Shown here one piece after another: positions 2,085 to 47,550 of a DNA stretch of 47,550 bases (positions within the stretch are counted from its first letter, which is position 1; every line of letters starts with the position of its first letter). The DNA lies in the IMG/VR virus record IMGVR_UViG_2534681704_000008; one strand, written 5' to 3'. A program made the translations under genes and the position numbers. The notes below the pieces were generated by a model. It worked only from the letters and a program-made list of their open reading frames with translations, searched no databases and was not told the origin of the DNA. The DNA is from a virus (Duplodnaviria; Heunggongvirae; Uroviricota; Caudoviricetes).

Positions 2085-2998
2085 AAATTTCTCTGGTCGT
2101 TCCTGTCTTCAACGAAGAAGACGCGATACCTATTTTTTATAAAACTGTTCGGGAATTTGAAGGACTTCAGCAACATGAAGTTGAGATAGTCTTCATAAAT
2201 GACGGAAGCAAAGACGCGACAGAATCAATCATAAACACGCTGGCTATTGCCGATCCGCTTATTGTTCCTCTGTCTTTCACGCGCAACTTTGGCAAGGAAT
2301 CAGCACTCTTTGCCGGCCTTGACCATGCAACTGGTGAAGCGGTTATCCCTATTGACGTTGACTTGCAAGATCCCATAGAAGTCATCCCGCACCTGATTGA
2401 GAAGTGGCAGCAGGGTTCGGATATGGTTCTGGCTAAGCGCTCTGACCGCTCAACTGATAGCCGACTGAAGCGTAAGTCAGCTGAGTGGTTTTATAAGCTT
2501 CACAACAAAATAAGCAACCCGAAAATTGAAGAGAACGTAGGCGATTTCCGGCTTATGTCTCGCGAAGTTGTTGAAAACATCAAGCTCATGCCAGAACGTA
2601 ATCTATTCATGAAAGGTATCTTGAGCTGGGTTGGCGGCAGAGCAGACGTTGTTGAATACGCTCGCGCAGAACGCGTTGCGGGAAATACAAAATTCAACGG
2701 GTGGAAACTGTGGAACCTTGCCCTTGAGGGTATAACTAGCTTCTCAACATTCCCTCTGCGCGTATGGACGTACATAGGGCTTATCGTTGCTGGCATAGCG
2801 TTTATCTACGGCGCATGGATGATCATCGATACGCTGGCATTTGGTAATGCTGTGCGCGGATATCCATCTCTACTTGTCTCCATCCTGTTCCTTGGGGGAG
2901 TGCAACTTATTGGGATTGGCGTTCTTGGTGAATATATTGGAAGAATATATATCGAGTCTAAAAAGCGACCTAAATACATTCTAAGGAAGATGAAATGA
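2081..2998 (+). CDS. gtrB: GtrB bactoprenol glucosyltransferase (GT2)
   Basis: 305 aa; N-terminal GT2 signature ([11 protein letters not shown]...DGSKD...DVDLQDP) and C-terminal TM helices. Confidence 0.9.
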
Positions 2999-4607: not shown

Positions 4608-6551
4608 TTATGCACCTTTAATCATAATCCACTTCCCGCCAGATGAATCTGAAACAGTAAATACTGCTGAAGATAGAGCTGGTAAAGGGTAAGGGGTGTT
4701 TATCCCTAAACCTAATATTTGTTGACCTAACGTAGGATAAATGTTTATAGAATTAGCGGAAACATTTGCTATCTGTACACTATAACCAGTGCCAACATCA
4801 GTAGTCGATGGTAGTTTCGCTCCAGTTCCAGGGCCACTAGCATTAACAGTAACACACCCTGCTGTTACACCATATCCTGCCGCGCCAGATTGACCGCCTC
4901 CAGTTCCAGTGATTGATGCTACAGGTAAATTGCTTGCCTTAACTACTTTGCGAACAACCTGTGAATAACCACCTGAAATGGTGATGTCAATATCATCAGT
5001 ACTATGAGGAGTTCCATCAAATGCGGTTGGGGTGGTAGCGACTGAGTATCCTCTAACCCTGACGCTGTTATAACCTGCGCTATCTCCAAAATAAACTGCA
5101 TTCTGATCTTGTCCATTTGCGATAACATCTATTACCGCCCCTGAGACTCCACCAAACCCTCCACCAAATGTAATTCCTGTGGACAATGGAAGCCCAATAC
5201 CCTTGTACTCTTCACCGATGTAACATGAGATTCGTGGATTTGAACCCAGCAAAACTATATTAGAGCCAGCCCACGGATAATAAACCTTGCAAGACTCACT
5301 CAAAGTAAAGTTGTTTGCCTCTACGAATACGTTTGTATCAGCACCTTCGAAATGTGAGGTATTAAATTCATTCCCTTCGGCTGGCCTGCTTACTTTTAGC
5401 GCATATTTAGATCGTAAGTCGCTCGCACTGGTCCAGCAGTGTATTCCTGACCATCGTGCATTTCCTTTCTCTATCCAGAGACCTGAGTAAGTACTCGCAG
5501 TCTTCTGCCCTGAGCTGATGATAATAACATCATTAACCACACTATCGTGCGGCCCTGCAAATCTCCAGCCATCCTCCCCACTTTTATCGATAACAATTTT
5601 ACTGAATGAGCCTTCCATGCCACCATCAGCATTGCCTGAATCAGCCCATTCTGTTCTTAATCCGTTCTTGCCTGCGTTGATGATATTGACCTTATCGATT
5701 CTGGTTCTTGGACCATAAATAGCTATAGCAGAACCATTCGGGCTATTTGCTTTATCTGCATCAATGGAGAGGTTTTCAACAATAATTCCATCTTCACCAA
5801 GTAAAGAGTTAGTACCCCAGAGAGAATTTGAGTTAGCGCCATAGAGTAATGCGTTCACTGAACCAGCTAACAGCTTGAGTTTAGTTCTCTCCTGCCCCTG
5901 TCCTCTGATTGTTGTTTTTGAATAAAGCGTAAGCGGGCCGGTTAATGTTGTGCCAGCAGGAACTATGCACGGTTTTCCCGTTAATTTATTTTCTTCTATT
6001 GCTGCCTGAAAGTTAACAGTATCTACTGTTACACCATCACATATACAGCCCCAGCCGCGAATATCTCCCTCATCTCTCCAGCGCGCAATCTGAAGCTCAG
6101 GGTATTTTACCGCACCATCAGGATCTGATATTTGTCTACGAAGAACATCACTGACATCAACAGGCTGCCATTTCCCATCACCAGTCCCGCCAGCAGAAGA
6201 TGGGGTAGAACCTGGCGGGACACTTTTTGGTAATGTCTCCAGGTCATCCCATCGGTACCAAATATCCGTACTCTCATCCTGGAGAAGGTCTCCAGCTGAC
6301 GTCACAGTGCCGCCATCCTGGAAAGATCCCCTCAGGTTCCATCCAAGGTTGTATATCTGCTGAAGCACTAACTGCTTCAGGCCTTCAATTGTATAGTGTG
6401 CTTTGCCAAAGCGATCAATGTATTGCTGAGAAATTGTGGTGACAAACTCGTCAATTTTCGCACCACCGAATACATGATCGCGAATATCAGGGCTTGGTAC
6501 AGGGTTTTGCGTCGGAGTTGGTACCGGGATGTTTGCGTATGAATCGGCCAT
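4608..6551 (-). CDS. Tailspike / side tail fiber with beta-helix (pectate-lyase-like) domain
   Basis: 647 aa; Gly/Ser/Thr/Asn-rich beta-helix-type composition; last gene of the tail module, next to gtr. Confidence 0.65.
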   Translation of the reverse strand: MADSYANIPVPTPTQNPVPSPDIRDHVFGGAKIDEFVTTISQQYIDRFGKAHYTIEGLKQLVLQQIYNLGWNLRGSFQDGGTVTSAGDLLQDESTDIWYRWDDLETLPKSVPPGSTPSSAGGTGDGKWQPVDVSDVLRRQISDPDGAVKYPELQIARWRDEGDIRGWGCICDGVTVDTVNFQAAIEENKLTGKPCIVPAGTTLTGPLTLYSKTTIRGQGQERTKLKLLAGSVNALLYGANSNSLWGTNSLLGEDGIIVENLSIDADKANSPNGSAIAIYGPRTRIDKVNIINAGKNGLRTEWADSGNADGGMEGSFSKIVIDKSGEDGWRFAGPHDSVVNDVIIISSGQKTASTYSGLWIEKGNARWSGIHCWTSASDLRSKYALKVSRPAEGNEFNTSHFEGADTNVFVEANNFTLSESCKVYYPWAGSNIVLLGSNPRISCYIGEEYKGIGLPLSTGITFGGGFGGVSGAVIDVIANGQDQNAVYFGDSAGYNSVRVRGYSVATTPTAFDGTPHSTDDIDITISGGYSQVVRKVVKASNLPVASITGTGGGQSGAAGYGVTAGCVTVNASGPGTGAKLPSTTDVGTGYSVQIANVSANSINIYPTLGQQILGLGINTPYPLPALSSAVFTVSDSSGGKWIMIKGA

Positions 6552-20593: not shown

Positions 20594-21589
20594 TTATTTA
20601 CCCCAGTCTTTTCTCTCTTTTGCAAGCTTATCAGCCAGCCCTTCGTTGAAAATACTGCCGTCGTCGTTGAGCAGCACCGGAATCTGGCTGCAGTAGCAGT
20701 TATACCGGTTACCGTTCTCTGCGTAGAAGTCCCGCACCTCTTCGGTGGTGTAGACCTTTCCGTGACGGCTGGCGTGCCAGGTGCGCGTCGTAGGTTTGAG
20801 CGCTGACAACCACAGCAGACCGGTATTCAGCCCCAGCCTGTCAGCCGCCCAGTCCGTTTCGTTCCATTGCGCCTGCCGCAGTGCGCCGATCTGCTCGGTC
20901 TGAGCGATGGTCTTGGCCTTCGACATCGACACATCGAGGCGCTTGCTGATGACGCTGGCCGTCTCACGAGGATTTACCCCGCGCGCTACAGCATCGGTGA
21001 TGATGTTGGTCAGGTCGCCACGGGCAGTGTCGCTGATTACCTTCCAGTCACTGAACGTTGTCAGCCTGGCCGCCGATATCTGGTTAAGATGACCGGGACT
21101 GCTTAAAAGCTGCTGTAACGTCGTCTGACTGGCGTACACCTGCGACTGCTGCGAGAGGTTATTGAATGCCTCCAGCGTGCCGCGCTGCGCCTCTGCTACG
21201 ACGTAATCCATCGCCCAGAGGTTTTGCTCGCCACCATCCAGCAGGTATTCGTCGAGAATGCCCTGCACCGCTTCCAGCAGGTCAGCCAGTTCCTGCGCCG
21301 ACATGTCGTAGATGAACTTGCCTGCGTTGACCTGGTAGAGCCGCATATCCTCGCCGTGGTCGTGGCACAGGAAGTGCCAGTTATGGCTGTTTACCTCGCG
21401 CTCACGCCCGGTCAGGCGCTGGTCAAACAGAGCTTTCAGCGCGCGCTTGATGCCGAGATACCGATCTTCGATATCCCGGAACATCGCGGTGACCTGTTTT
21501 GCCGAACGGGTCGGGTCAACCTTGCTGCGCGGAACTATCGGCAGCCCCACCTTTGCCGTCTGTTCTGGTGTCATCGGCCAGTGGATCAT
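20594..21589 (-). CDS. Head morphogenesis protein (minor head protein)
   Basis: 331 aa, position directly after portal; start uncertain (74-nt overlap with the portal ORF). Confidence 0.6.
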   Translation of the reverse strand: MIHWPMTPEQTAKVGLPIVPRSKVDPTRSAKQVTAMFRDIEDRYLGIKRALKALFDQRLTGREREVNSHNWHFLCHDHGEDMRLYQVNAGKFIYDMSAQELADLLEAVQGILDEYLLDGGEQNLWAMDYVVAEAQRGTLEAFNNLSQQSQVYASQTTLQQLLSSPGHLNQISAARLTTFSDWKVISDTARGDLTNIITDAVARGVNPRETASVISKRLDVSMSKAKTIAQTEQIGALRQAQWNETDWAADRLGLNTGLLWLSALKPTTRTWHASRHGKVYTTEEVRDFYAENGNRYNCYCSQIPVLLNDDGSIFNEGLADKLAKERKDWGK

Positions 21590-22985
21590 CGGTAGTCACC
21601 TTCTCGTCCGGTTTAGGCGGTTCTTTTGGTTCAGGCAGCGGGTCAAGCCCCACAATCTCGCGCAACTCATTTGCGGTAAACGGCGCGTCTCCACCATAGT
21701 AAGGCGTGGTTTTCTGCACGATGTCAGCGAGTTTCGAAGCGTTCTCGATCTTCTCTTTCTCGCCTGGCGCCAGCAGGTCGCTCCACGAAATGGTGACCTC
21801 GCCTTTTGTCGGCGGGTCGATAATCCCCAGCGTCCAGAAGCGTTCAAGCAGCGCGGTGATGCGGTCTGTCAGGAAGCCATTGCGCCGCGTGTTGCGCCGG
21901 ATAGCCCAGTCTGTTTTGTCCTCGTCGCTCGCCAGTCTCCCGGTCTGCTGACCGAACAGGATGGTGAACGGGATCTGTACGGAGGCGGCCAGTTCGTTCG
22001 CGGTAACCTCCCATGTCGGCCCCGGGTCGCCAGGCGTAACGCTCAGAACGTGCATCTGACCAGCCTGCATTACGGCCGCCGCATCGGTACCGCGGTTCAG
22101 CTTATTGACCTTGTCGCCCATCGCTTCGCCGAGATCGGCATAGCCAGCCTTCTTAGCCTGGTCTGCCAGCGTGTTCATGTCGGTTTCTTTGCTGAACTCG
22201 ACGGCGATCTGACGGCTGGCGTTCTTCAGGAAGCCCTCGGCGCCACCGCCGGAAATCTTCTCGATATCGAGGCCTTTGTTGAAACCAGCCTCCAGCAGCG
22301 GGATGCCGGACAGCACGTTGTCGTCTTCAGATCCTTCGCAGAACAAGATAACGCGGCTCGGGTGTACCGGTTCTCCGCGCATCGGACCGACAAAAGGCTC
22401 ATCACCGACCGGCTGCTCGTTGAAGTTGAACATCTTCGGCTGACCGAACGTTTCTGACTGACGGTCGTTATCCCATTCAGCGACGGTTAACTGCGGCTCC
22501 CACACAGGGATAAGTTTTACCAGCGCTGACTCGCCGAGTCGTTTTACTAAAGCAGTATCGACTTCCTGATCCCAGTTCCGATTGTCTTTCACCTGCAGCA
22601 GGAGCGCTGAGTAACGCCCAACCATATTGCGGCGATCGGCATCCTTCACCTTCGGCCACAGCCTCTTCATGAACTTGGTGACTTTCTTTTCCCAGGCGTT
22701 TGTATTCTTCGCCTCCTGAGCTTCATCACCGTCAACAATGACCGGATAGTCTTGCCAGCAACCATCCAGCAGACGATGCACCACAGCGAAGCCAGCGGCG
22801 TTGCGGCGGTACATGTTGTAGAAGTCGTTGAAGGTGATCGTGCGCGGGTAGCCAAATTCCTGGTAAAGCGTCGGTCGCTTCGTGTTGCCGCCACCGATGC
22901 CGATGGTATTCAGGTAATTCGCTCGCCTCATTTCAGTGGCGAGGTTGTTCACAGCCATCTGAAGGCCGTTATCTTGTTCGCTCAC
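21516..22985 (-). CDS. Portal protein
   Basis: 489 aa directly downstream of terminase large subunit. Confidence 0.75.
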   Translation of the reverse strand: MSEQDNGLQMAVNNLATEMRRANYLNTIGIGGGNTKRPTLYQEFGYPRTITFNDFYNMYRRNAAGFAVVHRLLDGCWQDYPVIVDGDEAQEAKNTNAWEKKVTKFMKRLWPKVKDADRRNMVGRYSALLLQVKDNRNWDQEVDTALVKRLGESALVKLIPVWEPQLTVAEWDNDRQSETFGQPKMFNFNEQPVGDEPFVGPMRGEPVHPSRVILFCEGSEDDNVLSGIPLLEAGFNKGLDIEKISGGGAEGFLKNASRQIAVEFSKETDMNTLADQAKKAGYADLGEAMGDKVNKLNRGTDAAAVMQAGQMHVLSVTPGDPGPTWEVTANELAASVQIPFTILFGQQTGRLASDEDKTDWAIRRNTRRNGFLTDRITALLERFWTLGIIDPPTKGEVTISWSDLLAPGEKEKIENASKLADIVQKTTPYYGGDAPFTANELREIVGLDPLPEPKEPPKPDEKVTTDDPLADDTRTDGKGGAADSSAQQG

Positions 22986-22997
22986 TGGCGATGCTCC

Positions 22998-24470
22998 TTA
23001 GAAGAATACTGTGCCGACTTGCTTGCGGTTATTCTTCGCTACTGCGAAATAACGGAAACTGTCAGCACCGTGCGATGTGAAGTCATGAAGCGGTTTATCT
23101 TTCCAGCAGCCGCGTTTGTCGTCCCACTCCTTGCGGTAGCCCTCAAGGTGAGAGATGCCAACAGCACACTTCTCTTCATCGAATACGCAGGACTTGAGGA
23201 TTTCACGGACCGACTCAATACCAGTGTCGATCCCTGCTTTCGGCACAACGCGGAAGTTCATCGAATACATCTGACCATCAATCTCGTAACCCTCGCGCGC
23301 CAGCTCTTTGCGTGACTTCGCATCAGCAGCAAACTCGCGGTTTTCGATGTCGTGCGGACCCCAGTGCTCGCCGTACTCATAGCCCCGGTCTTTCAGCACC
23401 TTCATGTAGTGCCTCAGCCCCTCGCCGGAGTTTTCGTAGTAGTCGATGATGTGGAACTCTTCGCCGACCTCACGAACGAACCATATCGCCGTGGAGTCAC
23501 CCACACCGATATCCCAGAACGTGTGTACCGGGAGGTGCGAGTTATCAGGGATTTGGCCGATCCGTTTGTTGGTGTAAAGCCAACGGAACTGCTTGGCGTA
23601 GTACGCGCCCTCGACCGACTGCTGAAACGCCTCGGCCGGAATGGTCGGGTATTCTCGCTTCATGTCATCGCCGAGGGTTTTCTCTTTGGCGTAGTACCAG
23701 GCTTTCTGGCGCTCATTGACGACTACGCCGTGCTTCGCCGCCATCTCAGCGAAGTATTCCAGCAGGCGCACCGGCAGTGCTTCGACAGGGTCGATTGCGT
23801 ACTGCGGATTCTTCCACCAGGAGAAGAAGAAAAACTTCCAGTCCAGCGCGGATAAGGGCTTCCCCTGCAGCAACGCTTTCTCTGCCGTCTGGCAGTAATC
23901 GAAGAAGTAACCCGCCCGCCCCTCGGCAGTGCTCTCGATAGTAGCGAAGCATCCGGTCGATACTGCCTCAAACGCGCCAGTGACGATCTCACGGGCTTTG
24001 TCAGGATACTTGGCGCATATCTTCCCGAACTCAGAAACGTGCAGGTAGCGCAGCGTACCGCCACGAAATGACGTGCTGACGTATAGCGAGCCGCCCTTCT
24101 TAAAAACGAGCTCGCCGGATGAATCATTGCTGGCCGGGTTGGCAGCCTTTATCTCTGACGGCAGTTTGTCGTATGCGTACTTCACTTTTTCGCGAAACAG
24201 GCGCTTTGCGTCATTCAGCGTATGGGCAATCAGCGCACACTTTGCTGATTCGAACAGGGCCGCGTCGAGCTGGATGATACACACCTCAGTTGTGAAACCG
24301 AGTTGCCTGGCCTTAAGGATGATGTTGCGGGTGTGGATCCCCTCGAAGTATTCCCGCTGCTCAGGCGTCATCCTGAACCGCGTAGGCTTTCCCTCTTTGT
24401 CGGTGATCCAGTAGAGATTGTTAAGCCGCCAGTCTTTGTCGGCCAGCAGCTTGAGGTGCTCAGGTTTCAT
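22998..24470 (-). CDS. Terminase large subunit
   Basis: 490 aa; N-terminal ATPase region and C-terminal nuclease region. Confidence 0.85.
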   Translation of the reverse strand: MKPEHLKLLADKDWRLNNLYWITDKEGKPTRFRMTPEQREYFEGIHTRNIILKARQLGFTTEVCIIQLDAALFESAKCALIAHTLNDAKRLFREKVKYAYDKLPSEIKAANPASNDSSGELVFKKGGSLYVSTSFRGGTLRYLHVSEFGKICAKYPDKAREIVTGAFEAVSTGCFATIESTAEGRAGYFFDYCQTAEKALLQGKPLSALDWKFFFFSWWKNPQYAIDPVEALPVRLLEYFAEMAAKHGVVVNERQKAWYYAKEKTLGDDMKREYPTIPAEAFQQSVEGAYYAKQFRWLYTNKRIGQIPDNSHLPVHTFWDIGVGDSTAIWFVREVGEEFHIIDYYENSGEGLRHYMKVLKDRGYEYGEHWGPHDIENREFAADAKSRKELAREGYEIDGQMYSMNFRVVPKAGIDTGIESVREILKSCVFDEEKCAVGISHLEGYRKEWDDKRGCWKDKPLHDFTSHGADSFRYFAVAKNNRKQVGTVFF

Positions 24471-24985
24471 TACGCCCCCTGAGACAGTGAATCCATCAGG
24501 TCAGATATTGAATTAACTACGTGCTCTGTTTTCACCTGCTCACGGAATGCCTGGACGTCGATATGCTTACCAATCAGCTCAAGGTTCTTCACCTTATCAG
24601 GCCACTTAATCTTCTTGAGCAGTGCGGCGGTGTTTCCCTCGGCTGACATCTCGACGACATCCAGCCCGGATAATGTCGTCCTCCAGACCTTCGGCCACTG
24701 AGAGACCGGCTTCAACTCTCCGGTCGAGGTCAGGATGTCGAGCACGTCCATCTGGTCTATCTCAACGAGACGATTCAGGACGTATGTCGCATTTATGCCA
24801 ACCAGATCATTGCGTTGCGCTTTAAGTTCGGCAATTCTGGACTGGATGTCAGGTTTTGACAGGTTTTCGGACGCAGTGCGGTTAGCTGTCTTTGCGCTGT
24901 ACCCCGCCCGAATAGCCGCTTGCGTGGCGTTCAAATCGATGAGGTACTCGCGACAGAACATTTCTTGCTTGTCTGTGAGTGCCAT
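24470..24985 (-). CDS. Terminase small subunit
   Basis: 171 aa, MALTDKQEMFCREYLIDLNATQAAIRAGYS HTH-type N-terminus. Confidence 0.8.
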   Translation of the reverse strand: MALTDKQEMFCREYLIDLNATQAAIRAGYSAKTANRTASENLSKPDIQSRIAELKAQRNDLVGINATYVLNRLVEIDQMDVLDILTSTGELKPVSQWPKVWRTTLSGLDVVEMSAEGNTAALLKKIKWPDKVKNLELIGKHIDVQAFREQVKTEHVVNSISDLMDSLSQGA

Positions 24986-25005: not shown

Positions 25006-25437
25006 ATGAGCTCATTAACTTTTATCGGATTGTCGCAATTACTTTCGAAGAAAGGTGAGTTGTTACAGCAAAATACGCATGGCTTACTGGATCGTGTTAA
25101 CACCGCATGGAATAACAAACGAGACCTTAATAAGCAAATTTCCATACAGTTAAAGGATGGTGGGCTTGAAGTTTTAATTCCCCAACTACGCTTTAAATGT
25201 TTTACGGAAAGCAAGCTTTCACTTCACGAGGGCTCGTTAATGGGGGTCATCACTTTTTACACGCCTCTGGATGGAAAAAATCAGGAATTTCATAAAGTTT
25301 TTCTTGATTGGGACAATTGCATGCATTTTGGGGCGCCAGATTCGACTCCTTCAATCGACACCGATTATGCTGAAAATGTTGAATATCATTTCATGAACGC
25401 CCTGATCGAGTCTGCCTCTCGTAATAATTTAATTTAG
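25006..25437 (+). CDS. Hypothetical protein, opposite-strand cargo gene
   Basis: 143 aa from MSSLTFIG (ATG 25006, AAGGAGG RBS); AT-rich; followed by a terminator hairpin. Confidence 0.5.
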   Translation: MSSLTFIGLSQLLSKKGELLQQNTHGLLDRVNTAWNNKRDLNKQISIQLKDGGLEVLIPQLRFKCFTESKLSLHEGSLMGVITFYTPLDGKNQEFHKVFLDWDNCMHFGAPDSTPSIDTDYAENVEYHFMNALIESASRNNLI

Positions 25438-25448
25438 AAACCATCTCA

Positions 25449-25472
25449 AGGGTGGTGAATATTACCCACCCT
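25449..25472 (+). terminator. Intrinsic terminator after the 143-aa cargo gene
   Basis: agggtgg-N10-ccaccct hairpin followed by cttaatttt. Confidence 0.5.
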
Positions 25473-25473
25473 C

Positions 25474-25682
25474 TTAATTTTCATCCTCTTGTACAAGAGT
25501 AATGTTGGGCAGAGGCGTGAACTGCACGCGCTTAACGTCGGCAGGAGCGAAATACAGCCACTGTCCCGTTTCCGTCGCCAGCGGCACAAGCCGTTAACCA
25601 GCTCAGGCTGACGTCGTGACATCTTGCCCGTGAAGGTTTCGCCTGTTTGGGTGGTTAGCGTGATTTGGTAGATGTCGGACAT
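25474..25682 (-). pseudogene. Small gene with an apparent -1 frameshift
   Basis: N-terminal frame MSDIYQITLTTQTGETFTGKMSRRQPELVNG; C-terminal frame LVPLATETGQWLYFAPADVKRVQFTPLPNITLVQEDEN ending just before the hairpin; shift at a C/G run near 25587-25592. Confidence 0.4.
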
Positions 25683-25744: not shown

Positions 25745-25770
25745 GCAACAAAAAACCGCCAGTAGGCGGT
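25745..25770 (-). terminator. Intrinsic terminator directly after the DUF4145-like gene
   Basis: accgcc-agta-ggcggt hairpin next to the stop codon, followed on the minus strand by tttttgttgc. Confidence 0.55.
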
Positions 25771-26454
25771 TTATTTTGTTTGTTTTAATGCTTTTTTCTC
25801 AGCCGCTAAAGCGGTAATGGCGTCAATTCGTAGTTGCCTTTCATGCTTTTCAACATACCACTCTTGAATTAGAAGCTCGAGGAGGCCTATCAGCATCTCA
25901 GCTTCGTCTGGATCGACATCAACAATGACATTGATATCATTTTCCATATGAGCACCAATGTTGCCAATATTCCGAACAGCATCGATGGCTTTCCAAACAT
26001 TCGATTCAATCTGCCCCTCGATGGCTTTTATTTCGTCAACAAGTCTCGCGGGCTTAACATTCCAGACGTTCCTAATCATCCCTTGAAGACACCTGCGTGA
26101 CAAAGTTGCAGAAGCTTTAGGTGATAGATTTTTGATTAACACTGCCTCTTTATAGTCATCTAAAATCGGCTTCGGCACATAATCAGGAAACTGTTTATAA
26201 ATTCCATTTGGCCTATTAACCCACTGCTCGATTAAGTTGACCGGTCTGTAATAGCCACCTTCAAGTTTCGCAGTAGATACCTTCGATACGTATGTGAATT
26301 CTTTACATTCTTTGTTCGGGCAAACGTTGACCGAAGATTCAAAAGCCAAAACCCCGTACTTAGTGTCAGCTGCCACAGCGAAACTGTTATTTTTTTTCTC
26401 AATTGACTCGAAAACTGACAAGCGCCCACAAAAAGGGCATTCCCAAGATGACAT
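25771..26454 (-). CDS. Zinc-ribbon plus DUF4145-like (HEPN-superfamily) protein; candidate abortive-infection/defence gene
   Basis: 227 aa from MSSWECPFCG (ATG 26454, AAGGAGG RBS); CxxC...CxxxC ribbon; C-terminal AVRNIGNIGAH resembling the DUF4145/HEPN R...H signature; low GC; own AT-rich promoter and terminator. Confidence 0.55.
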   Translation of the reverse strand: MSSWECPFCGRLSVFESIEKKNNSFAVAADTKYGVLAFESSVNVCPNKECKEFTYVSKVSTAKLEGGYYRPVNLIEQWVNRPNGIYKQFPDYVPKPILDDYKEAVLIKNLSPKASATLSRRCLQGMIRNVWNVKPARLVDEIKAIEGQIESNVWKAIDAVRNIGNIGAHMENDINVIVDVDPDEAEMLIGLLELLIQEWYVEKHERQLRIDAITALAAEKKALKQTK

Positions 26455-26518
26455 GTAAACCTCCTTAGATTTAAGAAGGTTAATATATTGCAAAACATTA
26501 GAGTGTTAAACGTACAAA

Positions 26519-26980
26519 TTAATTCAAGCATTGCTCTTTAATGTAGTCCTGCAGATAGCCGACCTGCTTCGTCACTGTGACGATTCGCTCTCTGAGGGTG
26601 AAATAATCCCGTTCAGCGGAGTCAGTAAGTCTGGGGCCGGAAGCATCGCCCACGCCGCTGGCGCCGGCCGTTCCGTTCGCGGGACATCTGGCGTTGACGT
26701 GCAGCCCACACTTACCAGTGCTAACGCAACGCTGCAGATCTTCAAGCTGAGATTTCGCATCAGCTAATTCCTTAATGTATTTGGCATCCAGCGCAGCGAC
26801 ATCTCGCTGCCGGGTCTGCATGTCTTTGATGGTGGAGTTCGCCAGGCTGAGTTTCTCAGTGGCCTTATCGCGCTGTTCTTTGTAGTTGATGGCGTTGTCA
26901 CGGTAATGGTTAATCGCCCAGGCCATGGAAACCAGCAGGCAGATAACGACAGCGCAGATGATGGCTGTTGATCGGCTCAT
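26519..26980 (-). CDS. Rz: Rz-like i-spanin
   Basis: [24 protein letters not shown]-terminal TM anchor then coiled-coil periplasmic domain; ATGA overlap with the endolysin stop. Confidence 0.8.
26572..26760 (-). CDS. Rz1: Rz1-like o-spanin lipoprotein embedded in the +1 frame of Rz
   Basis: 62 aa, LVSVGC lipobox, Pro-rich, C-terminal [11 protein letters not shown] matches lambda Rz1. Confidence 0.75.
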
Positions 26981-27471
26981 TTCTGGCCCCACTCGCAAAC
27001 TTCACGCTCAATCTCGCGCCGGGTGATAAGCCCCTTCCACTGTTTGCCACCGGCAAACGTCCAGCGCTGCAGTTCTTTGCATGCCCCCGGCACGTCTCCG
27101 GCGTTCAGCTTCTTCAGCAGTGTGGAGCTGGCAAAAGCACCAGAGCCAACGTTATAGGTGAAGGAGTAAAGTGCGGCACGCGTAGGCTCAGGGATGCGAA
27201 CCTTGATCAGCGGGTCGATGGCGTTTGCCACCTTCCGCAGATCTGCCTTAAGCAGGTTGTCACACTCTTTGTCGGTGTAGCGGTGACCGCGGCGAATGTC
27301 GGATCCGGTGTGCCCATCGCAAACAGTCCAGACGCCGACCACATCCTGATAGGCGTAATAGCGCCGCCCTTCCAGCCCATCCGCATTGCCAAGCATTACT
27401 GCAGCAATGGTGATTGCTCCGGATCCGCCAACAATGGCACCCACCAGCTTATTCCTGAGTGTCGGGTTCAT
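26977..27471 (-). CDS. SAR endolysin (phage lysozyme, GH24)
   Basis: 164 aa; N-terminal Gly/Ala-rich SAR segment ([20 protein letters not shown]); catalytic E-x8-D-x5-T ([16 protein letters not shown]). Confidence 0.8.
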
Positions 27472-28128: not shown

Positions 28129-28485
28129 CTAATTATCTGGATTCCAGATGGTTTCATCCAACTCAAAAACTAGACACTTTTTAGATTTATCCAGATAAAA
28201 TTCTGCAGTTCTTGCTTCTTGATCTAAATAATCCCTATCTTTACAACCTTCGAAATACTGAACATCAACCTCAAACTCAAAAGAGCCAGCATTATCGCCT
28301 TTTTCATACCAGACTTCGGTCACCTCAAAGCTGTCTGATTGATAGCTATATCGTGGATCGCCACGATAATCAGCCATGACATAACCTTCAAAATAATGTG
28401 AATGCTGCTTTATAAGATCCCGAAATGCTGCTTCTGTATTTGAAAAATCATCAGGAATATAGATCTCATATCTTTTGGTGCCCAT
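28129..28485 (-). CDS. Hypothetical acidic protein; cargo gene between Q and the lysis cassette
   Basis: 118 aa from MGTKRYEIYIPDDF (ATG 28485; the longer ORF-track start at 28536 is GTG); AT-rich; flanked by terminators. Confidence 0.5.
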   Translation of the reverse strand: MGTKRYEIYIPDDFSNTEAAFRDLIKQHSHYFEGYVMADYRGDPRYSYQSDSFEVTEVWYEKGDNAGSFEFEVDVQYFEGCKDRDYLDQEARTAEFYLDKSKKCLVFELDETIWNPDN

Positions 28486-28509
28486 TGGGAAAACCTTAGA
28501 GTTTGATAT

Positions 28510-28555
28510 TAGAGCAAATATTAAAACAAAAGCCACCGACTTTAACCAGTGGCTT
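28510..28555 (-). terminator. Intrinsic terminator directly downstream of Q
   Basis: aagccac-N12-gtggctt hairpin followed on the minus strand by ttgttttaatattt. Confidence 0.5.
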
Positions 28556-28622: not shown

Positions 28623-29312
28623 TTAATTGACTTTTGCAATACCCTGCTGCGAAAAAGTCGCCTTTTGTTGCGATCGTGTTCTCACAGCGCAGAGAAGAGA
28701 GTCGCTATCAAGCCGCTTAAAGATGGTGCACATGGCCCGCCAGTAATCGGCGTAGTTATGGCACCAGTTATCAGGTTTAACGCCGCACAGGGCCGCCAGG
28801 TCCTGATGCTGATATACATCCTTGCCTGCCAGCTCCGCTTTGACGTCCTGCGCCGCCAGCCAGATAAGTTTCTTCAGGCGCTCCATCGTCTTGCCGGCCA
28901 CCTTCTTCGTGCCGAGTTGCTCACGGAACTCTGCCCATGCCCACTGAGTTATCGCCACCTGATACTCGAAGCGGATGTTCTCGCTGTAGTTCCACAACAG
29001 CCATGCTTTCTGGTGGTCTTCAAGCGACAGGACGGCGCGGCGCCACGATGCGGTCACGAACTCAACCGGGCCCACCAGCGCAATGGATGAACCCTTGGCG
29101 CGTGACTGGCTGCCGCTCATCGGCGGGCCGTCCGGGTTGACCATGCGCTGCTTATCCTTGTCGAATACCTTTTTCCGGCCCCGACTGCGCGCCGTCGCGG
29201 TGAATTGCGCATTCTCGGCGAAGGCTACCAACTGCCCTTTCGTCGACCCGCTCAGATCTGCGGTCGCCACAATGAGCTGCTGACGTACGTATTCCAGTTG
29301 CTGACTGTTCAT
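28623..29312 (-). CDS. Late antitermination protein Q (assigned by position and size)
   Basis: 229 aa, located between rusA and the late/lysis region, Cys-containing C-terminus. Confidence 0.55.
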   Translation of the reverse strand: MNSQQLEYVRQQLIVATADLSGSTKGQLVAFAENAQFTATARSRGRKKVFDKDKQRMVNPDGPPMSGSQSRAKGSSIALVGPVEFVTASWRRAVLSLEDHQKAWLLWNYSENIRFEYQVAITQWAWAEFREQLGTKKVAGKTMERLKKLIWLAAQDVKAELAGKDVYQHQDLAALCGVKPDNWCHNYADYWRAMCTIFKRLDSDSLLCAVRTRSQQKATFSQQGIAKVN

Positions 29313-34843: not shown

Positions 34844-35077
34844 TTAGGCCGCAGTATCACGCGGCGATGCGAATACCAGGCTTTCTTTGAGGACCGGAGC
34901 CTGACGGTGAAAATTCTTCGTGCCTTTCTCGATAGCAGATGCCATTTCTGGAGATGCCCGGCGATTTCCGTAGGCGATCTGGTCCAGGTAACCTGGCGTC
35001 GTGTTAGCCAACTTTGCGAGCTGCGCCCATTCGTCGGTAGTGGCGGCCTTGCGCCAGCGGTGTAGTTCAGTGCTCAT
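34844..35077 (-). CDS. Cro-like repressor (YdaS/Cro HTH family)
   Basis: 77 aa, divergent from cI across the operator region. Confidence 0.7.
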   Translation of the reverse strand: MSTELHRWRKAATTDEWAQLAKLANTTPGYLDQIAYGNRRASPEMASAIEKGTKNFHRQAPVLKESLVFASPRDTAA

Positions 35078-35109
35078 TGTTGTCTCCGGGTGAGTCGTTT
35101 GATTTGGAG

Positions 35110-35174
35110 TTTAGCGTTATGCTAAATACTACGCAAGCATCATTTAGCAATTTGCACATTTATCATTTTGCTAA
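35110..35174. promoter_or_regulatory. OR operator cluster between cro and cI
   Basis: 17-bp palindrome TTTAGCgttatGCTAAA (35110-35126) plus weaker copies at about 35143-35159 and 35158-35174. Confidence 0.6.
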
Positions 35175-35193
35175 AAGAAGTAACAATGCAGGG

Positions 35194-35871
35194 ATGGAAA
35201 ATAAAGAAATCAGAAAAGCCAACCTGGAAGCGCTGTATGAGAAGCGCCAGCACGAGTCTGGAATGACCAAGGCACAGTTCGCCGAGCTCATCGAGACAAG
35301 TCCGGCTGCGCTTAGCCAGCTACTGGGACCAAACCCTCATCGCAATATCGGCGATAAGATGGCTCGCAAAATTGAATCTGCGCTTGATCTGCCTTTTGGC
35401 TGGATGGATGTTTTACACGCCAGTGAAGAACCTTCGAACGTTGCATTTCGAGGACTGAACGAGACAAAAGGAAGTTATCCTGTAATCAGCTGGGTAAGTG
35501 CGGGGCAATGGATGGAAGCTGTAGAACCTTATCACCGAAGAGCGATTGATCGCTGGTATGACACTACCGTTGTCTGCTCAGACGATTCATTCTGGCTGGA
35601 CGTTAAAGGGGATTCTATGACCTCCCCGGCCGGGCTGAGCATTCCTGAGGGAGCGGCTATTTTAGTTGATCCTGAAATCGAGCCACGCAATGGGAAGTTG
35701 GTTGTAGCGAAGCTTGAAGGCGATAACGAAGCGACCTTTAAGAAGCTTGTAATTGATGCCGGCAGACGCTTCCTTAAGCCACTTAACCCCGCATATCCAA
35801 TGATAGAGGTTAATGGCAACTGCAAAATTATCGGCGTTGTTGTTGATGCGAAGATACTAAACATCCCATAA
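35194..35871 (+). CDS. cI: CI repressor (HTH plus S24 LexA-like autopeptidase)
   Basis: 225 aa from MENKEIRK; intact catalytic Ser (GDSM) and Lys (FKKL). Confidence 0.85.
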   Translation: MENKEIRKANLEALYEKRQHESGMTKAQFAELIETSPAALSQLLGPNPHRNIGDKMARKIESALDLPFGWMDVLHASEEPSNVAFRGLNETKGSYPVISWVSAGQWMEAVEPYHRRAIDRWYDTTVVCSDDSFWLDVKGDSMTSPAGLSIPEGAAILVDPEIEPRNGKLVVAKLEGDNEATFKKLVIDAGRRFLKPLNPAYPMIEVNGNCKIIGVVVDAKILNIP

Positions 35872-40165: not shown

Positions 40166-40329
40166 AAGCGTGGTCTCTCGAAGAGCTGGCGCTGCTGTGG
40201 CGACACTCAAACGCTGAAGTCGCAGAGATTACCGGCCGCAGTATTGATGAGGTCGGAGATAAGCGGCTGCAAACCAATATTGAGCGTAATGGCTGGGATG
40301 TAAACGATCCGGAACGGGAGGATGCATGA
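40162..40329 (+). CDS. Small hypothetical protein absent from the ORF track
   Basis: 55 aa ([25 protein letters not shown]...), ATGA overlaps at both ends. Confidence 0.45.
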   Translation: MKAWSLEELALLWRHSNAEVAEITGRSIDEVGDKRLQTNIERNGWDVNDPEREDA

Positions 40330-41387
40330 GCAAAGTAGGCGATTATTTCTTTGAGTTCCCGGCGTCGCGCGGCACGCAGGGTTGTACGGTGACTTACATG
40401 ATCACAGCACCTGCCCGCGCACTGACGCGCATACTTGCCTCCGACAATCACGGCAGCACGCTCGATCGTTCTCAACGCGAAATTAACCAGGCGCGAGTGA
40501 AGAAGTTTTACCAGTACCTCGTCAATGCATACCAAAATAAAGAGCCCTTCATCATCCCGCCACTGGTCGGCAACTGCGACGCGGATATTGAGTTTGAAGA
40601 GTTCGGCAATACGAATGTGGGCGTCGCACGCTTCCCTATGGATGCAGTGATCAAGCTGTTCGACGGCCAGCACCGCGCAGCCGGATTAGCTGAGTTCTGC
40701 CGGACTTACGGAGAGCCAATCAGCATCCCGCTGATGCTAACCCATAATCTCCCACTGAAGGCACGCCAGCAGTTCTTCTCCGATATCAATAACAACGTCT
40801 CGAAACCTTCCGCTGCGATCAACATGGCCTATGACGGGCGTAATGAAGTTGCACAGGGGATGGTGACGTTCCTGTCTCAGCACGACACCTTCGCAGAGGT
40901 GACAGACTTCGAGCACAACGTCGTACCGGCGAAAAGTAAGTTGTGGGTGAGCTTCAAGGCGCTTAGCGACGCGACGGCCAAGTTTGCCAACGCGGGCGGC
41001 AAGCCGCTGGAAATGGGCGACATCGAATCCATCTGGGAGGCCTGGTTGGCCCTGACGCAGATCGAAGCGATTCGCCACGGCACCAGCCAGGCAGACTACA
41101 AGCGCGACTACATTCAGTTCCACGCAGTGATGATTAACGCCTTCGGCTATGCCGTTCAGCGGCTGATGGCTGACCACTCAATCGTAGATATCGTCCAGAT
41201 GATTGAGGAACTGGCGAGCAGTGCGGGCTCCTCTGAGATGGAAGACTTCTTCCTGATTTCCCGGTGGGGTGGTGTCTGCGTGAATGCCGAAAAAGACCGT
41301 CCAACGGTCATTGCCTCCGTTCCGGCGCAGAAATCTGCTGCAGACCGTCTCGTCAAAGTTATCCTGGCGAAAAGCCTTGAGGAGTAG
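40326..41387 (+). CDS. DGQHR-domain protein (ParB/DndB-like superfamily)
   Basis: 353 aa with an exact FDGQHRAAG motif. Confidence 0.7.
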   Translation: MSKVGDYFFEFPASRGTQGCTVTYMITAPARALTRILASDNHGSTLDRSQREINQARVKKFYQYLVNAYQNKEPFIIPPLVGNCDADIEFEEFGNTNVGVARFPMDAVIKLFDGQHRAAGLAEFCRTYGEPISIPLMLTHNLPLKARQQFFSDINNNVSKPSAAINMAYDGRNEVAQGMVTFLSQHDTFAEVTDFEHNVVPAKSKLWVSFKALSDATAKFANAGGKPLEMGDIESIWEAWLALTQIEAIRHGTSQADYKRDYIQFHAVMINAFGYAVQRLMADHSIVDIVQMIEELASSAGSSEMEDFFLISRWGGVCVNAEKDRPTVIASVPAQKSAADRLVKVILAKSLEE

Positions 41388-41389
41388 TT

Positions 41390-41845
41390 ATGACAATGCA
41401 GATGCACTCAATGCCCTGGCCTGAATCTCAGGCCATCTTTTTGTCAAAAACCTACCTTTACATGAACATGGATGAGCTGTGCAAAAGGTTACAACGCACC
41501 AAAGCGTCTATCCAGATGAAGGCCAGCAGCATGGGTCTTTACCGCTGTGGGAAATTAACCATCGACGATCTGCAGCTGATTGAAGCCCTGCTTGATGCCG
41601 GTCTTGAGCATGCGGTTATTGCCAGAAAGTTCGAACTCTCCAAGCCTCAGCTAATGAGGGTTCTGGAAACGGGAGCCTTTCATTGCGATATCTGCGGCAC
41701 GTTCTCCGCGTCTATGCGTTCCTCTTACTGGAAATTCGACGGAGAGCCGCAAAGGACTTATAGCTGCTGTCCGGAGTGTTGCCGGGCGATGGTTGAAAGC
41801 TTTAACGCAGGACACGACGGGCCGTTGCTGGCACGCAGACGGTAG
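41390..41845 (+). CDS. Hypothetical protein with C-terminal Cys-rich zinc-ribbon-like motif
   Basis: 151 aa; HCDICGTF...SCCPECC. Confidence 0.45.
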   Translation: MTMQMHSMPWPESQAIFLSKTYLYMNMDELCKRLQRTKASIQMKASSMGLYRCGKLTIDDLQLIEALLDAGLEHAVIARKFELSKPQLMRVLETGAFHCDICGTFSASMRSSYWKFDGEPQRTYSCCPECCRAMVESFNAGHDGPLLARRR

Positions 41846-41850
41846 GAGGC

Positions 41851-42510
41851 ATGACCGAAAAATACGCTCTTATCTACGCAGATCCTCCCTGGTCTTACGG
41901 CAACACCATCAGCAATGGCGCCGCTGCCGACCACTATTCCACCATGAAGCTAATCGACATCAAACGCCTGCCAGTCTGGGAACTTGCCGCCGAAAACGCT
42001 GTGCTGGCGATGTGGTACACCGGCACGCATAACCAGGAGGCGATCGAACTGGCCGAGGCCTGGGGCTTTACCGTTCGCACTATGAAAGGCTTTACCTGGG
42101 TGAAGCTGAACCAGAACGCCGAACTGCGCATCAACAAGGCGCTGGCTGAGGGTGAGGTCATCGACTTTTACGACTTCCTCGATCTGCTTAACGCCGAGAC
42201 TCGCATGAATGGCGGCAACCACACCCGGGCCAATACTGAAGACCTGCTGATAGCTACCCGCGGCGCCGGGCTGGAACGTAAGCACGCCGGGATTAAGCAG
42301 GTGGTGTACAGCCCACTCGGCGCGCACAGCGAAAAGCCGTGGGAAGTTCGGCACCGGCTGGAGCTGCTTTATGGAGATGTGCCGCGCATTGAGCTATTTA
42401 GCCGCAGCGCGGCGCCGGGCTGGGATCACTGGGGGAATCAGTGCGCCACCGCCGCGGTGGAACTGCTTCCCGGCTGCGCCATCGATGTTGTGAAAACGGA
42501 GGCCGCATGA
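41851..42510 (+). CDS. N6-adenine DNA methyltransferase, MT-A70-like
   Basis: 219 aa with the DPPW catalytic motif (YADPPWSYGN) near the N-terminus. Confidence 0.75.
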   Translation: MTEKYALIYADPPWSYGNTISNGAAADHYSTMKLIDIKRLPVWELAAENAVLAMWYTGTHNQEAIELAEAWGFTVRTMKGFTWVKLNQNAELRINKALAEGEVIDFYDFLDLLNAETRMNGGNHTRANTEDLLIATRGAGLERKHAGIKQVVYSPLGAHSEKPWEVRHRLELLYGDVPRIELFSRSAAPGWDHWGNQCATAAVELLPGCAIDVVKTEAA

Positions 42511-43556
42511 CGCCAGCAGCTTATTACAACGAAATCGACCCGTTCGCTGCTCAGTGGCTGCGTAACCTGATCGCCGGCGGTCATATCGCCCCGGGCGAAG
42601 TTGATGAAAGGAGTATTGAAGATGTCACACCTGACGATCTGCGAGGATTCACGCAGTGCCACTTCTTCGCCGGAATTGGCGTATGGTCTCATTCCCTGCG
42701 GCTCGCCGGATGGCCTGACGATAAACCAGTCTGGACCGGCTCCTGCCCGTGCCAGCCTTTCAGCGCGGCAGGCAAAGGAGATGGGTTTGCTGACGAGCGG
42801 CACCTTTGGCCCCACTTCTTCCACCTCATCAGCGAGCGCAGACCTGAGCATGTCTTTGGCGAACAGGTTGCAAGCGGTAACGCAAACACATGGTTCGACC
42901 TTGTACAAGCTGACCTGGAAGGAATGGAATACGCCTTCGGGCTTGTGCCGTTTGCGGCAGCGGGCGTCGGTGCTCCGCACATCAGAGAGCGGGCCTACTG
43001 GGTGGCCTACGCCAACAGCCAGATCGACGACCGGCGCAGGCACATCGGGGCGGATGGGAGGAATGAACATTCAGACTGCAGTAACCCTGACAGGTTGGCC
43101 GACACCCACAACGATCGACAACAATCAGGTTGCTGGCCAAGCTGCGGCTGCAAATGCACCAAAGCGGGGATCCACACTGGGCGGAGCATCAAGGCTTGCA
43201 GGATGGGTGACGCCAACCTCACGCGACTGGAAGGACTCGGCGGGAATGACTGCGCAGCGGGATGGCAAGGAGCGACTGGACCAGTTGCCTCGCCAGGCGT
43301 ACACATGCGGGCCCTTGAGGTTAACGGTTTTTGGCGAGATGCGGACTGGCTCTTTTGTAGAGATGGAAAATGGCGTCCAGTTGAACCCGGCACATTCCCG
43401 CTGGTTGATGGGGCTGCCGCGCGCCTGGTGCGAGTCGAGCCCGGGGTGGCAAGAGTGGCAAGCAGCAACCGCGTCGGCCGCCTGAAAGGGTACGGCAACG
43501 CCATAAACGCACAGGCTGCGGCTGAATTTATCCGGGCCTATATGGAGGGTTTATGA
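42507..43556 (+). CDS. DNA cytosine-5 methyltransferase (Dcm-like); reading frame possibly disrupted
   Basis: Motifs I (FFAGIGVW), IV (SCPCQPFSAAGK), VI (VFGEQV), VIII (HIRERAYW) and X-like (RLKGYGNAINAQAAAEFI) in the annotated frame; the +1 frame also looks coding in the middle. Confidence 0.6.
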   Translation: MTPAAYYNEIDPFAAQWLRNLIAGGHIAPGEVDERSIEDVTPDDLRGFTQCHFFAGIGVWSHSLRLAGWPDDKPVWTGSCPCQPFSAAGKGDGFADERHLWPHFFHLISERRPEHVFGEQVASGNANTWFDLVQADLEGMEYAFGLVPFAAAGVGAPHIRERAYWVAYANSQIDDRRRHIGADGRNEHSDCSNPDRLADTHNDRQQSGCWPSCGCKCTKAGIHTGRSIKACRMGDANLTRLEGLGGNDCAAGWQGATGPVASPGVHMRALEVNGFWRDADWLFCRDGKWRPVEPGTFPLVDGAAARLVRVEPGVARVASSNRVGRLKGYGNAINAQAAAEFIRAYMEGL

Positions 43557-46254: not shown

Positions 46255-47550
46255 ATGGCTAAGTCAGCATACCCAACAGGCGTGGAGAATCATGGCGGTA
46301 CGCTCCGCATATGGTTCATCTATAAAGGCAGCCGGGTGCGTGAAAGCCTCGGCGTGCCGGATACACCAAAAAATAGAAAAGTAGCTGGCGAGTTACGCGC
46401 GTCGGTGTGCTTCGCGATAAAGACAGGCAACTTCAACTATGCCGCACAGTTCCCTGACTCGCCGAACCTGAGAAGATTTGGGGTGGAGAGCAAGGAAATC
46501 ACCGTGCTCGAACTGGCGAACAAGTGGCTTGAACTGAAGCGTATGGAGATCAGCACCAACGCGATGTCACGTTATACATCTATAACGCGCAATATGGTAC
46601 CGCGGATCGGCGGAGACAGGCTGGTATCTGCGGTGACGCAGGAAGACCTGCTGTTTATCAGAAAGGAACTGCTGACCGGGTATCAGACGCTGAAGGCTGG
46701 ACACAAAACACCAGTTAAAGGCCGCACAGTCAGAACGGTCAACAACTACATGAAGACCATGGCTGGCATGTTCAAGTTCGCTGCTGAAAGTGGTTATGTG
46801 AAGGTGAGCCCTTTCACCGGGATCGCCCTTCTCAAGCGTTCGCGTTGCGAGCCTGATCCGCTCACCCGCGATGAGTTTGTCAGGCTGATTAACGCTTGCG
46901 CCACCCAGCAGTTGAAAAACATGTGGTCGCTGGCAGTGTACACCGGCGTGCGCCACGGTGAACTGGTGTCGCTGGCCTGGGAAGATATCGACCTGAAAGC
47001 AGGAACGATGATGATCCGCCGAAACCACACGTTGACGAAGGAGTTTACCCTTCCGAAAACCGAGGCTGGGACAAACCGCATCATCAACCTTATTCAGCCA
47101 GCTATTGACGTGCTGAAGAACCAGGCCGAATTAACCCGCCTGGGTAAGCAGTATCAGGTAGAGGTGAAACTGCGTGAGTTTGGTCGCACAGAAGTGCATC
47201 CGTGCACATTCGTGTTTAACCCACAAAAAGGATTGCGCAATGGCCGTGCAGGGCATCATTACGCAGTGGGGTCGATCAACCAGTCGTGGGAGGCAGCAAT
47301 GCGACGCGCCGGGATTCGCTATCGCAGAGCATACCAGTCCCGACACACGTATGCATGCTGGTCGTTGGCCGCCGGTGCTAACCCGAACTTCATCGCGAAG
47401 CAAATGGGCCACACCGACGCACAAATGGTTTACCGGGTGTACGGATCCTGGATGGCTGAAAATAACCAGGACCAGGTACTCATCCTCAACCAGAAATTGA
47501 GTGAGTTTGCCCCATCCATGCCCCACGCAGTGGGAACGGATGATTATTAA
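46255..47550 (+). CDS. int: Tyrosine integrase (lambda Int family)
   Basis: 431 aa, AGGAGGG RBS; catalytic region RHTYACWSLAAGANPNFIAKQMGHTDAQMVYRVY; the 3' end contains the att core. Confidence 0.9.
   Translation: MAKSAYPTGVENHGGTLRIWFIYKGSRVRESLGVPDTPKNRKVAGELRASVCFAIKTGNFNYAAQFPDSPNLRRFGVESKEITVLELANKWLELKRMEISTNAMSRYTSITRNMVPRIGGDRLVSAVTQEDLLFIRKELLTGYQTLKAGHKTPVKGRTVRTVNNYMKTMAGMFKFAAESGYVKVSPFTGIALLKRSRCEPDPLTRDEFVRLINACATQQLKNMWSLAVYTGVRHGELVSLAWEDIDLKAGTMMIRRNHTLTKEFTLPKTEAGTNRIINLIQPAIDVLKNQAELTRLGKQYQVEVKLREFGRTEVHPCTFVFNPQKGLRNGRAGHHYAVGSINQSWEAAMRRAGIRYRRAYQSRHTYACWSLAAGANPNFIAKQMGHTDAQMVYRVYGSWMAENNQDQVLILNQKLSEFAPSMPHAVGTDDY
47488..47528. repeat. attR core: 41-bp direct repeat identical to 984-1024, inside the int 3' end
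   Basis: Exact identity with 984-1024. Confidence 0.7.

Follow-up and report, generated by a model that had tools for sequence, protein, structure and literature searches.

The IMG/VR virus record IMGVR_UViG_2534681704_000008 is a 47,550-nucleotide stretch of DNA, referred to here as the window, whose overall organisation is that of a lambdoid/P22-like Klebsiella prophage. Between the lysis gene Rz and the terminase genes, on the minus strand (25771..26454), it carries a cargo gene whose translation from an ATG start is a 227-residue protein (MSSWECPFCG...KQTK) with an N-terminal zinc-finger domain and a C-terminal DUF4145/HEPN domain. We propose that this gene, together with its own control signals, is a prophage cargo cassette whose single product acts as an anti-phage sensor and effector on the plan of RAZR/PD-T7-4, a reading to which we assign a probability of roughly 0.6. 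In all likelihood it represents a general type of defence gene that is already known, here carried by a prophage, and not a new kind of system.

Domain architecture and relationship to RAZR/PD-T7-4

The features of the coding region, with their positions in the window, are:

25771..26454, minus strand: cargo coding sequence, 227 residues (zinc-finger domain, linker, DUF4145/HEPN domain, long C-terminal helix)
26215..26454, minus strand: N-terminal zinc-finger domain, residues 1-80, six beta strands, with C6xxC9 and C45x4C50 knuckles at beta-hairpin turns
26173..26214, minus strand: linker, residues 81-94 (RP..K.FPDYVP), mean column conservation 0.67 versus 0.46 in the zinc-finger domain
25855..26172, minus strand: HEPN (DUF4145) domain, residues 95-200
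25972..25974, minus strand: codon of R161, the predicted catalytic Arg, invariant and aligned with RAZR R146
25948..25950, minus strand: codon of H169, the predicted catalytic His, invariant in GNIGAHME and aligned with RAZR H154

A mechanically compiled list of open reading frames (ORFs) offered a 240-residue version of the gene that begins at a TTG codon (26493). We dropped it for the ATG at 26454 because a GGAGG sequence lies 5 nucleotides from that codon, the N-terminus is conserved in homologues, and public gene calls agree. The protein has the same sequence (100% identity) as a Klebsiella aerogenes entry at NCBI, and on the public contig GCA_043291985.1 all window proteins tested match at 100%.

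An initial annotation, made from the DNA alone, had pointed to a DUF4145/HEPN-like segment and named a profile search as the check. That search supports it: Pfam DUF4145 (PF13643) matches residues 102-189 at 38.4 bits against a gathering score of 23.1 (E 1.3e-9; profile positions 1-84 of 88). The Arg/His signature that it had read as AVRNIGNIGAH corresponds to residues 159-169 and has the spacing R161-x7-H169, compared with R-x4-6-H in the canonical HEPN motif. Conservation was assessed in an alignment of 38 diverse homologues, in which this pair is invariant, as are C6, C9, C45, C50, R120, R121 and the segment G164-N-I-G-A-H169-M-E171. The proposed CxxC...CxxxC ribbon needs amending in part: the first pair, C6xxC9, stands as described, and the second is C45-x4-C50 (CPNKEC). 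Mean pairwise identity is 33% across the finger domain versus 70% across the HEPN domain. An AlphaFold2 model built from the same homologues (predicted local distance difference test score, pLDDT, 83.5) has a six-stranded beta N-domain (residues 3-79), in which the four Cys sit at two beta-hairpin turns, followed by helices (residues 95-226) in the alpha-helical fold of HEPN domains. As a separate observation, the motifs SPKASATLSRRCLQG and GNIGAHME hardly change between Klebsiella and Planctomycetota, Chloroflexota and Patescibacteria, and the HEPN half, at 70%, is unusually conserved for a putative defence gene.

The nearest characterised relative is PD-T7-4, first found in E. coli UMB1727 (Vassallo et al., 2022; PMC9519451) and since renamed RAZR, for ring-activated zinc-finger RNase (Zhang et al., Nature 2026; PMC13017515; PDB 9y9c). 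In RAZR a linker (residues 66-79) joins a Cys4 finger at the N-terminus to a DUF4145/HEPN domain at the C-terminus; the protein defends through abortive infection and is switched on by assembly of 24 copies around the ring of the SECphi27 Gp77 recombinase or of a T7-type portal (PMC13017515). Once activated it cleaves single-stranded RNA non-specifically, and the substitutions R146A and H154A abolish defence (PMC13017515). The finger is its most variable part and determines phage specificity, and mutation of the dimer-dimer residues D179/D180/R184 blocks activation, with V21 also named for oligomerisation (PMC13017515).

Several comparisons connect the cargo protein to RAZR. The single meaningful PADLOC match is PD-T7-4 (E 1.4e-12), collinear from residues 3-203 on profile positions 13-185 of 211. 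RAZR is also the sole sequence relative in the PDB (9y9c_OA; phmmer E 2.4e-6 from the single sequence and 6.6e-9 from a profile). When compared by hhalign with an alignment of the RAZR clade, the match (96.9% probability, E 1.6e-10, 26% identity) is restricted to the end of the linker and the HEPN domain. It starts in the linker, where residue 81 pairs with RAZR-clade position 65, and the linker residues of the cargo protein differ from RAZR 66-79. Within the matched region R161 and H169 align with RAZR R146 and H154 and share their unusual R-x7-H spacing, and Y101/E103, S111-P-K113, R120, C122, Q124 and G164-N165 match residues invariant in the RAZR clade (DY.EA, SPK, R..C.Q, GN).

The two proteins are alike in plan: each is the product of a single gene of about 220 residues, in which a Cys4 finger precedes a linker and then a DUF4145/HEPN domain. 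The invariant Cys4 set within a variable N-domain, joined to a conserved HEPN half, is RAZR's sensor/effector pattern. They differ in that identity is about 26% and limited to the linker and HEPN domain; that the finger of the cargo protein is about 80 residues long versus about 65, with a Cx4C second knuckle and an extra beta-hairpin (residues 53-79); and that its C-terminal region is predicted to be one long helix. From these sequence comparisons we place the cargo protein as a sister of PD-T7-4/RAZR, outside that family proper. The abortive-infection role suggested in the initial annotation would, by analogy, agree with the experiments on RAZR. We also observed that database entries of the true RAZR/PD-T7-4 clade (P0121-P0240 in our set) are mostly 133-197 residues long, with a zinc-finger domain that is incomplete or absent. 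The apparent reason is that gene callers place the starts of these entries at internal codons, and automated surveys may under-report the finger in that clade.

One match points elsewhere. PHROG 1305 (E 1.5e-33) carries the label 'DNA binding protein', as does the RefSeq entry for gp7 of Streptococcus phage SM1, and zinc fingers often bind nucleic acid, so that the protein could be read as a regulator that binds DNA or RNA and does not act as a nuclease. That label reflects annotation rather than a demonstrated function. Moreover, the counterparts of RAZR's catalytic Arg and His are invariant in GNIGAHME across phyla, which argues for an enzymatic site, and the zinc-finger domain is the least conserved part of the protein, unlike a DNA-recognition module with a fixed operator. 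A regulator is therefore very improbable.

Other HEPN proteins are related to the cargo protein to differing degrees. A survey in 2013 already named zinc-ribbon fusions and presence in double-stranded DNA viruses for DUF4145 (Anantharaman et al., PMC3710099). The cargo protein scores as a member, yet DUF4145 is a domain family of many architectures (fusions with restriction endonuclease, helicase, transmembrane and AbiJ-NTD domains, and type I restriction-modification operons), and membership tells nothing about trigger or context. Compared with HEPN-MNT toxin-antitoxin systems and HEPN abortive-infection proteins (AbiV, AbiJ, Csm6, RnlA/LsoA), the cargo protein comes without an MNT or other partner gene or a CARF domain, and has an N-terminal zinc finger instead. 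DS-38 is a validated E. coli defence protein with a HEPN domain and a zinc finger, of which the HEPN domain alone superposes on PD-T7-4 (10.1101/2025.01.08.631726). Judged by this description rather than by sequence comparison, its relation to PD-T7-4 is confined to the HEPN domain, as is that of the cargo protein. DS-38 may be a different protein from the subfamily in the window, because the cargo gene is found in only 3 of 5,426 complete E. coli genomes.

A mobile single-gene cassette between Rz and the terminase genes

The control elements of the cassette and the phage genes that frame it are:

26482..26509, minus strand: sigma-70-like promoter TTAACA-16-TATATT, 10/12 consensus matches, inside the spacer between Rz and the cargo gene
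26460..26464, minus strand: ribosome-binding site GGAGG, 5-nucleotide spacer to the ATG
25753..25772, both strands: intrinsic terminator hairpin AAACCGCC-N4-GGCGGTTT, overlapping the stop codon, with an A-tract on one side and a T-tract on the other
26519..26998: Rz, upstream of the cargo gene (Phage_lysis, E 2e-41)
26977..27471: lysozyme, upstream of the cargo gene (Phage_lysozyme, E 2e-43)
28623..29312: Q antiterminator
24470..24985: small terminase, downstream of the cargo gene (Terminase_2, E 1.5e-40)
22998..24470: large terminase, after the small terminase
21516..22985: portal, after the large terminase (Phage_portal_3)
35077..35871: CI-like repressor
46255..47550: integrase

The initial annotation described a low-GC gene of 227 residues with an AT-rich promoter of its own, a strong ribosome-binding site and an adjacent intrinsic terminator. 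The G+C content of the gene is indeed 0.41-0.43 versus 0.55-0.59 in the flanking lysis and terminase genes, and the GGAGG ahead of its ATG is nearly invariant in 14 related loci (alignment positions G98/G100/G101). The terminator has a G+C-rich stem of 8 bp; the hairpin is detected by the scan on both strands and looks bidirectional, and its RNA fold has a free energy of -16.7 kcal/mol (z = -4.5 versus shuffles). A CCGCC-N4-GGCGG-T5-6 hairpin is kept directly 3' of the stop codon in E. coli, Tatumella and Rouxiella loci, and one related locus (L095) has a compensatory change in the stem.

The promoter scan found 4 sites versus 2.5 +/- 1.8 expected in shuffled sequence, which by itself is not significant, and the case therefore rests on comparison of related loci. 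In 13 of 14 related prophage loci the -10 block ATATATTAACC (26488..26478) is nearly invariant and the spacer bases around it vary; even a Tatumella prophage whose upstream sequence differs retains the block. On this comparison TTAACA-16-TATATT would act as the cassette promoter, and we infer that the cassette is transcribed in the lysogen.

Promoter, ribosome-binding site, coding sequence and terminator appear to travel as one unit of 776 bp (25745..26520). In six prophage contexts this interval is 99.6-100% identical at the nucleotide level, amid proteins whose identity to those of the window ranges over 70-100% for Rz, 41-100% for lysozyme and 34-100% for the portal. An identical cargo protein is found on at least 24 contigs, where the gene invariably starts 64 bp after Rz, the length of the spacer in the window. 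What follows it varies: Terminase_2 and TerL; a 200-residue protein and a TerL of 497 residues; or PhageMetallopep, DUF2280 and Terminase_3. In E. coli R1 an unrelated gene of 135 residues fills the same slot between Rz and TerS. Since a near-identical 776-bp unit recurs across prophages with divergent lysis and packaging modules, sequence comparison identifies the gene as a self-contained mobile cargo cassette, or moron, as the initial annotation had supposed: it has a putative promoter and a terminator of its own, a deviant composition, and is present in some related prophages and absent from others.

A lambdoid moron downstream of the lysis cassette has a precedent in lambda bor, a lipoprotein gene that adjoins Rz. 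The cargo gene resembles such morons in its slot between Rz and the packaging genes, its own promoter and terminator, its deviant G+C content and its presence/absence pattern. It differs from bor in that the products are unrelated and in that the cargo gene runs in the direction of the late operon. A megablast search of the slot against cultured phages returned fragments of the flanks only.

The Phage_lysis and Terminase_2 matches confirm the position between Rz and terminase, and the gene is not the sole occupant of that slot, as two further small ORFs lie there. The first (25006..25437, plus strand) is a second low-GC cargo gene (~0.40) on the strand opposite to the HEPN gene; translation from an ATG preceded by a strong AAGGAGG site gives 143 residues. 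Pfam, PADLOC and PHROGs returned no match for this gene, which is called in the identical public contig and has ~87% nucleotide-identical copies beside terminase genes in several E. coli genomes. The second (25446..25682, minus strand), downstream of the cassette, is frameshifted relative to intact homologues of 67-72 residues: one frame encodes residues 1-33 (MSDIYQITLTTQTGETFTGKMSRRQPELVNGL), and a different frame encodes the conserved C-terminal part (ETGQWLYFAPADVKRVQFTPLPNITLVQEDEN). Its PHROG 6581 match covers the N-terminal half only, and no gene is called there in the 100%-identical public contig; it is probably a pseudogene or a sequencing error common to both records.

Relatives of the cargo protein extend far beyond these prophages. 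At least 7,588 clusters at 90% identity match it at E <= 1e-3. Relatives with both GNIGAHME and ATL[SA]RRCLQG occur in 550 of 185,579 species-representative genomes, where they are 43-60% identical to the cargo protein (Acidobacteriota, Planctomycetota, Chloroflexota, Patescibacteria, Bacteroidota, Leptospira and others), and relatives are also present in 303 IMG/VR viral contigs. We clustered the ORFs within +/-3 and +/-4 positions of the gene in 80 genomic and the 80 best viral loci. There was no conserved neighbour in the genomic loci (the largest neighbour cluster had 4 of 80) and no conserved partner in the viral ones, and Pfam matches among 146 immediate neighbours were heterogeneous, with few restriction or resolvase genes. 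The cargo gene is a single-gene unit, in line with its earlier description as standalone, and the lack of a conserved partner at these loci rules out a two-gene system or toxin-antitoxin pair of that kind.

A related alternative is that the protein is the HEPN toxin of an addiction module that stabilises the prophage with no phage sensing, its antitoxin being an unrecognised neighbour such as one of the small downstream ORFs. No MNT antitoxin gene adjoins the gene in the window or at any of the 160 related loci, nor does any other conserved partner. Furthermore, the downstream small ORF is frameshifted in the window while the HEPN gene is intact, contigs with the identical protein have differing downstream genes, and the terminator sits between the HEPN gene and the genes that follow. 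We regard such a module as highly improbable.

Proposed mode of action and the alternatives

The scheme that we favour is drawn largely by analogy with RAZR. The cassette promoter would make the protein in the lysogen, with read-through from the Q-dependent late operon adding more after induction. The variable N-terminal Cys4 zinc-finger domain would recognise a protein of an incoming phage, and the HEPN domain, recognised by its fold and motif, would then be activated to cleave RNA at a composite site that R161 and H169 build within a dimer. Cleavage would stop translation and so abort the infection. Because the sister clade has a different, larger sensor domain, its triggers probably differ from those of RAZR. 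The weakest step is the idea that activation requires the protein to polymerise on a large ring-shaped phage structure, for instance a portal or recombinase; we put this forward only tentatively, as something rather less than an even chance, because the dimer-dimer residues are not conserved and the finger differs.

Several findings weigh against this proposal. The defence role of the protein, and of its subfamily, is predicted from relatives. On the PD-T7-4 profile (PADLOC PDLC04109) the cargo protein scores 45.6 bits, within a range of 35-46 for five members of its subfamily, versus 272-295 for the RAZR clade. The zinc-finger domain has only an insignificant CPxCG knuckle in common with the RAZR finger in a profile search, and BLASTP between the finger domains returns an 8-residue match at CKEFTY (E 0.011). 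These finger comparisons used one full-length RAZR-clade finger (P0162), because a search seeded with RAZR residues 77-189 gave mostly N-terminally truncated gene calls. We found no close solved structural relative of the zinc-finger domain, in searches where Foldseek is insensitive and the fold libraries possibly lack 9y9c. RAZR D179/D180/R184 align with Q197/E198/E202, of which the second alone stays acidic, and V21 is not alignable; higher-order assembly therefore cannot be assumed for the cargo protein. In non-enteric genomes the gene lies mostly beside housekeeping genes, often alone, and not in defence islands. Finally, the promoter scan count lies within the range of shuffled sequence, and the gene shares the orientation of the late operon, which leaves room for a role in the phage's own lytic cycle.

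This last possibility can be stated as a specific alternative, in which the HEPN RNase serves the lytic programme by degrading host or competitor RNA or by timing translation shut-off at induction. Strand and position (Q, lysis genes, cargo gene, terminase) suit it, as does the constant distance of 64 bp from Rz in enterobacterial prophages. An Rz-like gene is also the first gene upstream in 19 of the 80 best viral contigs, and is no more than four genes away on that side in 27, with lysozyme two or three genes upstream in 17 and terminases of several kinds downstream. However, a conserved -10 element and a terminator belong to the cassette itself, and homologues stand alone in the chromosomes of 550 species genomes from many phyla with no lysis or packaging genes adjoining. 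A second recurring viral context is beside a Cro/CI-type helix-turn-helix gene (13 loci). Among cultured phages, tblastn finds the protein in eight temperate Streptococcus phages only. Two of these, SM1 and Javan173, carry the homologue within their lysogeny/early-control region, on the strand of integrase and repressor. These phage contexts fit a gene that benefits the lysogen. In addition, non-specific RNA cleavage of the kind described for RAZR (PMC13017515) would harm the phage's own late expression. A lytic role is accordingly unlikely in our estimation.

An alternative closer to our proposal retains a defence protein with the domains of RAZR and gives it another switch: activation at the level of the dimer by a small phage protein or nucleic-acid cue acting at the finger, with no ring templating. 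The finger is unrelated to that of RAZR in detectable sequence and has the extra beta-hairpin, the salt-bridge residues between RAZR dimers are not conserved, and the authors of DefensePredictor took the same view of DS-38 versus PD-T7-4 (10.1101/2025.01.08.631726). The identical cargo protein also coexists with resident portals that are only 34-62% identical to each other, so that if portals were triggers, the resident ones would have to be tolerated. Against this, there is no positive evidence for another trigger, and the collinearity and conserved linker are compatible with RAZR-like coupling of the domains. We consider this switch a minority prospect, with odds of somewhat under one in three. 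A little less probable is the broader idea that the GNIGAHME clade is a distinct, widespread branch of zinc-finger HEPN sensors, in which an enlarged fold-orphan finger would sense another phage structure or cue, the RNase would be turned on without RAZR's dimer-dimer contacts, and resident portals would be ignored.

Other features of the prophage and significance of the cassette

The remainder of the prophage encodes RecT/YqaJ, a tailspike and a gtr-type module. An Rfam scan of the full window at gathering thresholds gave zero matches, and ARAGORN found neither tRNA nor tmRNA in it. Another low-GC island (28129..28536, minus strand; 0.37-0.38) separates the Q antiterminator from the holin, in a position where Stx phages carry toxin genes. 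Its ORF, of 135 residues from a GTG or 118 in the public call, matches PHROG 13663 (function unassigned) and nothing in Pfam or PADLOC. At one end of the prophage, gtrA-like, family-2 glycosyltransferase (gtrB-like) and DUF6056 membrane protein genes adjoin a pectate-lyase-type tailspike (1722..4557, plus strand, and 4608..6551, minus strand), in what looks like an O-antigen/serotype conversion module. SRAP (YedK-like) and UmuD-like S24 peptidase genes lie further left (1..669, 1219..1608). In the early region (40326..43556, plus strand) a DndB-like gene (Pfam E 9.7e-47; PADLOC DndB E 1.3e-39) is followed by MT-A70 and C5-cytosine methyltransferase genes; no other dnd genes were seen nearby, and the group may be an anti-restriction or self-modification module. 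Among the related loci, one E. coli locus (NZ_CP070103.1, L001 203..1552) encodes a 449-residue protein, WP_001514194.1, that RefSeq names 'anti-CBASS protein Acb1 family protein'. It is 33% identical over 442 residues to the window portal and holds the portal position after terminase, and the Acb1 annotation is probably misleading.

The architecture and logic of the cargo protein are already known from PD-T7-4 in 2022, DS-38 in 2025, and the mechanism and structure of RAZR in 2026, so that for a system of known general type the gain is incremental. What is new is a separate, very widespread clade with a different, larger sensor domain, and a cassette that moves among lambdoid prophages at the Rz-terminase junction. 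With its conserved HEPN half and fast-evolving finger, the family suits domain-swap work on trigger specificity. If our proposal is correct, the clade would provide a second, sequence-distant case for separating what is general from what is clade-specific in the sensor-to-RNase coupling of RAZR. Should the GNIGAHME clade indeed ignore resident portals, it would be a natural system for the discrimination of self from non-self virion proteins by a prophage-borne sensor. For the hosts, the cassette would represent a ready-made defence module swapped among lambdoid prophages of Klebsiella, Enterobacter, Citrobacter, Raoultella and E. coli, which would affect which phages infect these bacteria and would thus be relevant to phage therapy.

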